NCBI GenBank assembly: GCA_965221875.1
Contig: OZ244920.1
Span: 489,164-553,163, forward strand
Reading direction: 5' to 3'
DNA length: 64,000 bases
DNA from: Thermodesulfobacteriota bacterium
GTDB taxonomy: Bacteria; Desulfobacterota_D; UBA1144; Nemesobacterales; Nemesobacteraceae
The translations under genes were made by a program, and so were the position numbers. The notes under the pieces were generated by a model. That model was not told the origin of the DNA. It did no database searches and saw only the letters and a program-made list of their open reading frames with translations. Positions 18,780 to 20,633 of the stretch are shown in pieces; positions within the stretch are counted from its first letter, which is position 1; each line of letters starts with the position of its first letter.

Positions 18780-18980
18780 ATGAAGATTAATCTTATATCT
18801 ATTGGCAACTCGAAGGGAATTCGCATTCCTTCCTCGGTTATCAAGCGGTGCGGCCTCGGCGACGAACTGGAGATGCGTATTGAGAACGGAGTTATCATGC
18901 TTGTGCCTGTGCGAAGCGTGCGCGAGGGCTGGGGTGTCGCCTTTGAAAAAATGGCGGCCGCTGGTTCTCGACGCACTTGA
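18780..18980 (+). CDS. mazE: MazE/PemI-like antitoxin (AbrB/SpoVT fold)
   Basis: MKINLISIGNSKGIRIPSSVIKRCGLGDELEMRIENGVIMLVPV is a typical MazE/PemI sequence; overlaps the start of the toxin gene. Confidence 0.7.
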   Translation: MKINLISIGNSKGIRIPSSVIKRCGLGDELEMRIENGVIMLVPVRSVREGWGVAFEKMAAAGSRRT

Positions 18981-19122
18981 AAACGACTTCGATGCCGAGG
19001 ACTGGACATGGTAGGGCAGGTTCGGCGATATGATATCTGCCTGGTCAACTTGGATCCCGCACAGAGATCGGAAATCCAGAAGATGCGGCCATGCGTGGTG
19101 ATCTCGCCGGATGAGATGAACC

Positions 19123-20331
19123 GGGAATTATATACATAATTACCCAAACAGGATGATGAAATCATGAGAAAGTTTTTGATTCTGGCTTTGCTGGTGGTCT
19201 TTTCAGCTGGTTACGCTGAGGGAAAAGAAGAAGGATATACCTCGATGGTAACAGGAACGATTTATAAAGGGGCGAAGATGGCAAAGGATGGGGTTGTGGT
19301 AGCAACAGGTTACTTGCTGAAAGCGGGGAAATATGGGTTGGAGAAAGGGAAAGATGGTTTCTGGTATTTGACTGGAACCAGCAAGTATTATTTGGCTCCA
19401 GTTCTCTCCGCAACAACAGAGTATGCGGGTGCCGTAGTGAATCTCCCCACGATGTTACCCGTCTTGTCTCAGACGCAATGGCTTAACTATCTTGAAAGTT
19501 TGACAAGTTCTACAGCAACCCGCTTCGACAAGGCGTTAGATGCTAAATATCTAGAAACTGCCATGGGCGGGGGCAATCACCGGCTATTTGACGGAGGACA
19601 CACCCTTGGGGGCGCTTGGAAAAATGTTTCCGAGATGTGCGCCGCAACAGGGTGTTCATCCAGGGAACAAGTAAGTGGGTACTTCGGATCTCTCTGGAAA
19701 GATGCTACCACACCGAAAGGTCTCCCCTTTATGACTATGGAAAAGCAGACGTATGATGCTCTTGCCAATCGCTTAAGTGACTATGGAATCAGCAAGCAAT
19801 GGACATACGATGCCTTGTCCTATGACGCACTGGAAGTTGTGGGAGCGGGAATTTCAGCAGCGGTGGTGGTGTATTATTTGGATGCCGGGCAAACAGAAGA
19901 ACTGTCGGAAGCCTTGGGGGCGATTGGAATTGCAAGTATAGCTTCCGCTAATCCTCTTATGGCACTAGTGGCAATTTCATCGGTTGCGTATGCCATTGCG
20001 ACTGGAACTGATTTGAAAGGAACTGCGGTCGCATCGGGAGTGGTAAAAACCGCCATAGTCTCCGGAGCGTTGGTTCTTGTCCCAGGGCCGTTTGTAATGG
20101 GTTTGACGGGGGGTGTAGCACTTTCCATCATGTTCGACAAGAGTGTGAATTACAAGAATTATGAAATTGCCAAGGATTACGTGTTATATAGTGCTTCGAC
20201 TCTAAAGGCTTGGGTCCCGACATGATAGAAGCAATAATCGAGTTTTTAATTGCAGTGATAGGCGGACATTTGAATGACCCCTACCGAAAGAAAACCAAAA
20301 AGAGCTATGGGTAGTCATGTATATAATTCCC
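19123..20331 (+). mobile_element. 1209-bp non-autonomous TIR cargo element: 23-bp terminal inverted repeats, 8-bp target-site duplication GATGAACC
   Basis: Left TIR GGGAATTATATACATAATTACCC (19123-19145), right TIR GGGTAGTCATGTATATAATTCCC (20309-20331); identical GATGAACC at 19115-19122 and 20332-20339; no transposase inside. Confidence 0.75.
19164..20225 (+). CDS. cargo ORF: secreted protein with N-terminal signal peptide and C-terminal Gly/Ala-rich hydrophobic (glycine-zipper-like) region
   Basis: 353 aa; MRKFLILALLVVFSAGYAEG signal; C-terminal ~120 aa of AxxxG/GxxxA repeats; no homolog recognised. Confidence 0.55.
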   Translation: MRKFLILALLVVFSAGYAEGKEEGYTSMVTGTIYKGAKMAKDGVVVATGYLLKAGKYGLEKGKDGFWYLTGTSKYYLAPVLSATTEYAGAVVNLPTMLPVLSQTQWLNYLESLTSSTATRFDKALDAKYLETAMGGGNHRLFDGGHTLGGAWKNVSEMCAATGCSSREQVSGYFGSLWKDATTPKGLPFMTMEKQTYDALANRLSDYGISKQWTYDALSYDALEVVGAGISAAVVVYYLDAGQTEELSEALGAIGIASIASANPLMALVAISSVAYAIATGTDLKGTAVASGVVKTAIVSGALVLVPGPFVMGLTGGVALSIMFDKSVNYKNYEIAKDYVLYSASTLKAWVPT

Positions 20332-20633
20332 GATGAACCAATACATCCGCACGGTCATAATAGCGCCAATGACATCAACACGGCGAGACTACCCCAGTCG
20401 CGTAGATGTCACCTTTCAGAGAAAAAAAGGCCAAGTGGTACTCGATCAGATAAGAACCGTGGATAAGTCTCGTCTGGTCAGGAGGCTGGGTGTCCTGCCG
20501 GATCTGCGCATGCGAGAGGTGGCAGATGTGTTGCGGGAAATGTTCGCCTACGGCGAATGAAGAGAAATATCAGGGCAAGACGATTTTCCGGAACCTTTCG
20601 CGAATGGTGTTGCGAGTTCCCCAAATAATGTTC

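Follow-up and report, generated by a model that had tools for sequence, protein, structure and literature searches.

How does a piece of DNA that encodes no transposase come to lie, with clean transposon-like ends, inside the toxin gene of a toxin-antitoxin (TA) module? The question arises from a 64 000-nucleotide stretch of a Thermodesulfobacteriota genome (assembly GCA_965221875.1, contig OZ244920.1, positions 489 164 to 553 163 of the forward strand; GTDB family Nemesobacteraceae), called the window below and numbered from its first base. Here a cassette of 1209 bp, about 88% of it gene, spans 19123-20331 and interrupts mazF/pemK. Very probably it is a mobile insertion cassette (MIC), that is, a non-autonomous derivative of the IS1595 insertion sequence (IS) family with terminal inverted repeats (TIRs) and a passenger gene, which was presumably mobilised in trans into mazF and duplicated GATGAACC there. 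Features and their coordinates are collected in Table 1.

The ends are well defined. The two 23-bp TIRs (GGGAATTATATACATAATTACCC on the left; GGGAATTATATACATGACTACCC as the reverse complement of the right) match at 21 of 23 positions, or 23 of 26 on extension, and form the longest inverted repeat of the region. Their pattern is expected 0.00 times by chance according to 100 dinucleotide-preserving shuffles of the window, and the position weight matrix (PWM) score of the cassette ends is ~40 against a shuffle maximum of ~10. A perfect 8-bp target-site duplication (TSD), GATGAACC, abuts both TIR tips. When the cassette and one copy of GATGAACC are removed, 19008-19122 and 20340-20560 join into 336 in-frame nucleotides encoding a 111-aa protein that spans positions 1-109 of the 109 in the Pfam PemK_toxin model (E 6e-31). 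The preliminary description of this locus, made from the sequence alone, had reported 23-bp TIRs bounding 19123-20331, a perfect 8-bp TSD and an in-frame MazF/PemK upon excision; all three were reproduced on re-reading. Its proposal of a non-autonomous cargo transposon in mazF also holds, given the unoccupied allele, the second insertion site and the lack of an encoded transposase described below.

The unoccupied allele of the mazF site is found in L082, an independent metagenome contig with the gene order of the window: small open reading frames (ORFs), MazE, MazF and an MNT/HepT-like pair. It aligns to window positions 15923-19122 at 98.9% identity and to 20332-21656 at 97.7%. Where these alignments meet they share exactly 8 bases, GATGAACC, present as one copy in L082, where MazE (83 aa) and MazF (111 aa) are both intact. 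The uninterrupted 111-aa MazF of L082, P0121, is 99% identical to the window protein excised in silico.

The cassette also occurs elsewhere. The closest homolog of its cargo protein, P0001 (94% amino acid identity), is encoded in L001, where it adjoins an iron-dependent repressor/ZnuABC operon. By blastn the L001 cassette is 95.4% identical to that of the window at the nucleotide level, exactly from TIR to TIR, and similarity ends at the TIR tips. In all, five other assemblies (L001 and L089-L092) have the cassette, at 95.6-95.8% nucleotide identity, at this location, site A, where a glutaminyl-cyclase gene lies on the side opposite the Fe-repressor/ZnuABC operon. Besides P0001, four members of its 90% protein cluster are encoded at this site in other assemblies, some of them on contigs of 1.0 and 2.0 Mb. 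The site-A copies are 1212 bp long and mutually 98.2-99.9% identical; their flanks, TAGAATAA and TAAAATAA, match at 7 of 8 positions, and their TIRs are slightly more degenerate than those of the mazF copy. Site A looks like an older, vertically inherited insertion. At mazF the TIR tips agree perfectly with the consensus, the TSD is perfect and an allele that is 98-99% identical lacks the cassette, so this is a separate and more recent insertion.

An account without transposition, with recombination or gene conversion between diverged sequences bringing the cassette to mazF, or with junctions that are metagenome mis-assemblies, takes its appeal from the probable origin of the source as a metagenome-assembled genome (MAG) and from the IS-rich neighbourhood. 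It must then explain a base-exact 8-bp duplication at the TIR tips, the single copy of GATGAACC in the independently assembled L082, and the same cassette with the same boundaries at another locus in five independent assemblies; moreover, mazF and site A share no homology able to drive recombination. We regard it as very unlikely.

To place the ends in a family, we used the TIR core GGGAAYTANATACATRAYTA to scan 185 579 genomes, one per GTDB species. The 76 loci found come from many phyla and groups, including Oligoflexia, Caldilineaceae, Thermodesulfobacteriota, Alphaproteobacteria, Heliobacteriaceae and Omnitrophota. Ends of this lineage are written GGGAATTATATACAT..., with a conserved terminus of ~20 nt, GGGAAYTATATACATRAYTA; TIRs are 23-28 bp and TSDs 8 bp. 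Flanking 8-mers match at 7 or more of 8 positions for 18 of 27 TIR pairs (15 perfect, 3 near-perfect), compared with none of the 81 offset controls. On average the TSDs are 81% AT, and they have no fixed motif; GATGAACC is the least AT-rich of 20. Four classes of element are bounded by the same ~20-nt terminus, namely autonomous ISs, MITEs (miniature inverted-repeat transposable elements), transposase-less cassettes and tnpB-only elements. The passengers of the autonomous elements (L059, L069, L075 and L037) comprise a KilA-N protein, an N6/N4-methylase-HNH fusion and small membrane proteins. The 170-bp MITE has at least nine copies in one Oligoflexia MAG (RHO2_bin_34; loci include L009, L021, L028, L041, L048, L065, L070 and L080), each with a different 8-bp TSD, which indicates a recent burst. 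Several of the MAG labels (RHO2, CAR1/CAR3, SB0661) look like names given to bins from sponge microbiomes.

The IS1595 family is defined by 8-bp TSDs and a transposase whose N-terminus bears a zinc finger and whose C-terminus bears a DDE_Tnp_IS1595 domain, the related Merlin elements having 5'-GG termini (PMC8101967). The present lineage has the 8-bp TSD, and transposases with these ends have both domains: the proteins of L069 and L075, the two scanned with Pfam, match DDE_Tnp_IS1595 (2e-43 and 2e-41) and Zn_ribbon_IS1595 (4e-12 and 7e-10). The L075 protein also matches NCBIfam transpos_IS1595 (3e-57), and its plasmid-borne relatives are annotated 'IS1595 family transposase'. A genome search with the TIR had been suggested in the preliminary description as the way to define the family and its autonomous partner, and the analysis points to IS1595 as the family, with intact candidate partners in contigs L018 and L052. 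No IS1595 transposase is encoded within 19123-20331, so the cassette is a derivative of the family rather than an IS belonging to it.

The terminal sequence of the cassette also abuts a tnpB gene, at 50968 in the window, where it reaches 17 nt past the tnpB stop codon, and bounds tnpB-only elements elsewhere. This would suit a relative of IS200/IS605/IS1341 (palindrome-associated transposable element, PATE-like) moved by a TnpA/TnpB system. IS200/IS605/IS1341 elements, however, are characterised by the lack of TIRs and TSDs, by subterminal hairpins and by a fixed 4-5-nt target, and IS607 likewise has neither TIRs nor TSDs (PMC13565253). The cassette has 23-bp TIRs and an 8-bp TSD, and 23-28-bp TIRs with 8-bp TSDs occur in this lineage even around tnpB-only elements, as in L068 with its perfect AAACGATG. 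Among the TIR-bounded elements examined, none showed a Y1 or a serine TnpA, and IS1595 transposases have the same ends. The tnpB gene is better read as another passenger, and this origin for the cassette is extremely unlikely.

Could the cassette instead be autonomous, with its 353-aa protein or a 30-aa ORF serving, unrecognised, as the transposase for its own TIRs? The 353-aa gene is the only sizeable one between the TIRs, its product belongs to no known family, and its invariant Asp/His residues could in principle bind metal. Its properties point elsewhere. It has an N-terminal signal-peptide-like segment and hydrophobic stretches at 217-241, 250-284 and 286-324, which could form three or four membrane helices; a signal peptide and such helices are incompatible with a cytoplasmic DNA enzyme. 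No transposase domain was found in either ORF with Pfam or NCBIfam, as the preliminary description had supposed for the cargo. Its homologs at 50-64% identity lack TIRs (PWM maxima < 0) and are encoded by single genes in ordinary chromosomal settings, so the gene was captured by the ends and stands outside the transposition machinery. The identical TIRs are found around unrelated cargos as well as around bona fide IS1595 transposases, and the 8-bp TSD is a hallmark of IS1595 (PMC8101967). Self-mobilisation therefore seems exceedingly improbable, and we return to the cassette as a MIC with a passenger.

That passenger belongs to a large family: a word-indexed search gave 153 matches, and in an exhaustive profile search the cluster representatives numbered 711 at E <= 0.001 and 383 at E <= 1e-30. 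The motifs FDKALD...GGGNHRLFDGGH, TTPKGLPF and SANP are conserved. In 111 diverse members D126, R140, D143, G186 and P188 are invariant, and at least 90% of them keep D122, H139, H146 and D180. Between the window and site A dS is 0.087 and dN is 0.024 (dN/dS = 0.275), showing that the gene is maintained by purifying selection. Nothing significant was found for the family in sequence profile searches of Pfam, NCBIfam, PADLOC or PDB; weak Ntox21 and holin matches (E 0.09 or worse) were dismissed as noise. An exact-sequence look-up of the window protein and of cluster member P0246 returned no record. The AF2 model is all-alpha (pLDDT 81) and has no fold match.

These data support a predicted membrane protein of a large uncharacterised family. 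Our best guess, held with low confidence, is a protein of the envelope that may use its conserved Asp/His cluster to bind metal or a small ligand. The preliminary description had named a signal-peptide protein with a Gly/Ala-rich hydrophobic tail, possibly membrane-active or toxin-like, as the only gene inside. The signal peptide, the hydrophobic tail and the membrane character stand; the Gly/Ala richness is modest (0.30 in the tail vs 0.24 overall), and a second, 30-aa ORF is present, of which 25 of 30 residues are kept in the site-A copy and which is called as a gene in L001. A toxin-like nature found no backing in the domain, defence-system and structure searches just given, nor in the structure prediction that had been proposed as a check.

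Which transposase might have moved the cassette? An intact 313-aa IS1595 transposase is encoded in L018 and L052, two contigs of one Thermodesulfobacteriota MAG, with 73-75% identity to that of L075. The gene is followed by a small AT-hook-like ORF and then by a TIR whose first 20 nt are those of the left TIR of the cassette. The window holds relics of such elements. At 17284 lies the right end of one, with a minus-strand ORF (17301-17477, 58 aa, AT-hook-like) that is 60% identical to the small ORF of L018 (E 5e-17). This end truncates a retropepsin-like ORF at 17090-17283, the missing 3' half of which was sought in the window and not found. A degenerate solo end at 18091 has the same orientation, both ends being within 2 kb upstream of the cassette; L082 has the two of them as well, which dates them before the mazF insertion. 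The 23-nt TIR at 19123-19145 is nearly palindromic (~19/23 self-complementary), so that degenerate solo ends, the one at 18091 among them, are ambiguous in orientation. Pairing the 17284 end with the 20331 end as a larger composite was tried and rejected: the flanks mismatch, and L082 has the former end and not the latter. Two transposase remnants lie farther off (Table 1).

From these parts the following course may be proposed. An IS1595-family DDE transposase from an autonomous copy with the same ~20-nt termini would bind both TIRs in trans and cut the cassette out of its donor site; the cassette would then be inserted into mazF at a staggered 8-bp cut, repair of which would give the GATGAACC duplication. 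The evidence for trans-mobilisation by a cognate transposase is circumstantial, consisting of the intact copies in a MAG of the same phylum and the relics in the window.

Several points weigh against this account. No intact transposase with matching TIRs lies within the 64-kb window. Its sole intact IS1595-type gene (26427-27338, D-D-E kept) is ~35% identical to the TIR-associated transposases, and a search for TIRs around it gave none that was convincing. Current mobility of the cassette in this genome, of which 64 kb were seen, is putative, as is trans-mobilisation of the members of the lineage in general. Known insertion sites are two only: a scan of JGI metagenomes with the cargo protein added no further copy, returning only relatives at 50-61% identity without TIRs. 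The empty allele in L082 could in principle reflect precise excision and not ancestry; mobility is implied either way.

The target is a MazF/PemK toxin, as judged from the full-length PemK_toxin match, the upstream overlapping gene for a MazE/AbrB-type antitoxin (MazE_antitoxin, 5e-07), which overlaps the mazF start, and the intact orthologous pair in L082. Insertion splits MazF after residue 38. Compared with L082, mazE has a 17-bp frameshifting deletion that leaves the N-terminal AbrB/MazE DNA-binding domain in frame and the C-terminus out of frame. The C-terminal part of MazE is the toxin-binding region. Thus both TA genes are inactivated in this genome. The preliminary description had concluded that the toxin was inactivated by the cassette, which agrees with the split gene; its account was sound as far as it went, having missed the mazE frameshift and the IS relics 1.8 kb away and having named neither the family (IS1595) nor the class (MIC), both already described. 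A cell can afford to lose an antitoxin only once the toxin no longer works, so the parsimonious order would be insertion first and mazE deletion second, the dead toxin having made the antitoxin dispensable.

Upstream of mazE is a promoter-like site overlapped by a perfect 15-nt palindrome, which is probably the mazEF operator. The cassette is co-oriented with mazEF and no terminator-like site lies between the promoter-like site and the cassette; read-through transcription into the cargo gene is plausible. Directly downstream of mazF is an MNT/HepT-like nucleotidyltransferase pair (20634-21387, minus strand).

MICs were first described for MIC231/IS231 of Bacillus cereus and are defined by IS-type TIRs, passenger gene(s), no transposase, the TSD of the parent family and presumed trans-mobilisation (PMC3129680, PMC3281130). 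The present cassette has IS-family TIRs and an unrelated passenger, and it encodes no transposase; its TSD, its empty allele and its occurrence at two places are evidence of transposition. It thus resembles MIC231 in having IS-type TIRs around a passenger, no transposase and the TSD of its parent family. It differs in that family (IS1595, whereas IS231 belongs to IS4), in its passenger, an uncharacterised predicted membrane protein, and in its hosts, which are uncultivated Thermodesulfobacteriota/Dadabacteria-like bacteria; its trans-mobilisation is proposed from sequence. According to Siguier, Gagnevin and Chandler 2009, as cited in PMC3129680, the IS1595 family is known for passenger-carrying 'transporter IS'. 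The autonomous L059, L069, L075 and L037 are such elements, with the same TIR lineage and 8-bp TSD; the cassette is their non-autonomous counterpart, having lost the transposase gene or never had it.

Other classes fit less well. The MITEs of the lineage share termini and 8-bp TSDs with the cassette, but MITEs are short (roughly <300 bp) and non-coding, whereas the cassette has 1209 bp, 1062 of them in an ORF under purifying selection. Nor is the cassette a composite transposon, its cargo being flanked by 23-bp repeats only and not by two complete IS copies. Like IS1341-type tnpB-only elements and eukaryotic Fanzor-carrying DDE transposons, it has a single accessory gene between its ends and no transposase; it lacks tnpB, however, and IS1341/IS605 elements lack TIRs and TSDs (PMC13565253). 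MICs and passenger-carrying IS1595 elements are established concepts, and the cassette overturns nothing and brings no new principle.

Table 1. Features of the mazF locus and the rest of the window, followed by related elements in other contigs
Feature	Position or size	Strand	Basis or remark
Degraded N-terminal IS1595 transposase fragment	8-133		Window left edge
Relic right end of autonomous IS, same lineage	17284-17477	+	TIR 17284-17306 and small ORF
Degenerate solo TIR-like end	18091-18114	+	PWM 20.7 vs shuffle maximum ~10
mazEF promoter-like site and overlapping perfect 15-nt palindrome	18729-18773	+	TTGAGA-17-TACAAT (18729-18757); putative function
mazE antitoxin gene	18780-19014	+	17-bp frameshifting deletion after 18956; comparison with empty-site allele L082
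mazF/pemK 5' fragment	19008-19122	+	Pfam; 99% identity to intact P0121 once joined to 3' fragment
Left TSD copy GATGAACC (8 bp)	19115-19122		Read directly; single copy in empty-site contig L082
Left TIR GGGAATTATATACATAATTACCC	19123-19145	+	IS1595-family type; first 20 nt equal end of autonomous IS in L018
Passenger gene, 353-aa protein	19164-20225	+	Predicted signal peptide, Asp/His-rich helical core, 3-4 C-terminal hydrophobic helices
Small 30-aa ORF	20222-20314	+	Overlaps cargo stop (ATGA), ends inside right TIR; gene status uncertain
Right TIR, reverse complement GGGAATTATATACATGACTACCC	20309-20331	-	Direct reading, repeat search, PWM
Right TSD copy GATGAACC (8 bp)	20332-20339		Read directly
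mazF/pemK 3' fragment	20340-20560	+	Pfam; P0121 comparison; empty-site alignment
IS630-family gene split by IS3-family element	21959-24831		Nested IS cluster
Second IS630	24919-26010		Nested IS cluster
Frameshifted C-terminal IS1595 transposase remnant	27959-28226	-	TIR-associated lineage; 50-69% identity to L018 transposase, three segments
IS21 IstB	28567-29355		Nested IS cluster
Further IS3-type rve gene	30047-30868		Nested IS cluster
IS21 IstA-like gene	31041-32306		Nested IS cluster
tnpB gene	50985-52157	-	guided_TnpB 2e-76; stop codon inside TIR 50968-50990
5' end of window tnpB element, degenerate TIR	near 52209-52233		PWM
Autonomous elements L059, L069, L075, L037	2.8-3.4 kb		312-321-aa protein each, with passengers
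MITEs	136 and 170 bp		Same termini
Transposase-less cassettes L013, L027, L071	0.6-1.7 kb		Same termini
L030 tnpB-only element			70% aa identity; both TIRs, TSD 7/8; split by IS256-family insertion
L068 tnpB-only element	3496-5107 (1612 bp)		28-bp TIRs; perfect TSD AAACGATG
L077/L014 tnpB-only elements			Both TIRs

The window also contains a dense nested IS cluster (21900-32300) with IS630, IS3, IS1595 and IS21 family genes, parts of which are ~90% identical to the Thermodesulfobacteriota MAG contig L054. Small ORFs with a coiled coil and a transmembrane segment adjoin the TIR ends and transposase remnants, at 17570-17770(-), 17818-18063(+), 18296-18544(-), 26261-26420(+) and 27700-27935(+). 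In view of the passengers of L059, L069 and L075, they may represent a recurrent accessory gene of the IS lineage. A PIN/VapC-like ORF (50418-50819) adjoins the tnpB element.

Three TnpB lineages, mutually only 24-37% identical, have the same IS1595-type ends, and wherever the ends could be read (window, L068 and L077) the tnpB stop codon is inside or just before the TIR. From this position an omega-RNA would end in the TIR and its guide would consist of the 8-bp TSD and the adjoining flank. When the window tnpB element was scanned with Rfam, no described omega-RNA family was matched. The DDE families that a 2026 review names as associated with prokaryotic TnpB are ISL2, IS630 and IS1031, without IS1595, and it describes such associations as rare (PMC13565253). 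We tentatively suggest, as a possibility on the doubtful side, that the ~20-nt terminus GGGAAYTATATACATRAYTA defines a cross-phylum 'plug-in' system in which one transposase lineage serves interchangeable single-gene cargos, including at least three divergent TnpB lineages. If so, the mazF cassette would be one cargo variant of the system, possibly with a host-beneficial gene, and IS1595 would join the short list of DDE families that partner TnpB. TnpBs cooperating with a cut-and-paste DDE transposon would be a bacterial counterpart of the Fanzor-bearing DDE transposons.

The occupied and the unoccupied site, the second insertion and the relics of the autonomous partner together make this an unusually complete natural record of the movement of a transposase-less cassette. 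IS1595-type ends can, it appears, spread a conserved gene for an uncharacterised membrane protein and disable a TA module on the way. The TIR lineage, with its MITEs, cassettes and tnpB carriers across many bacterial phyla, should be useful for the annotation of MAGs and is a starting point for asking how TnpB can work together with a DDE transposon.

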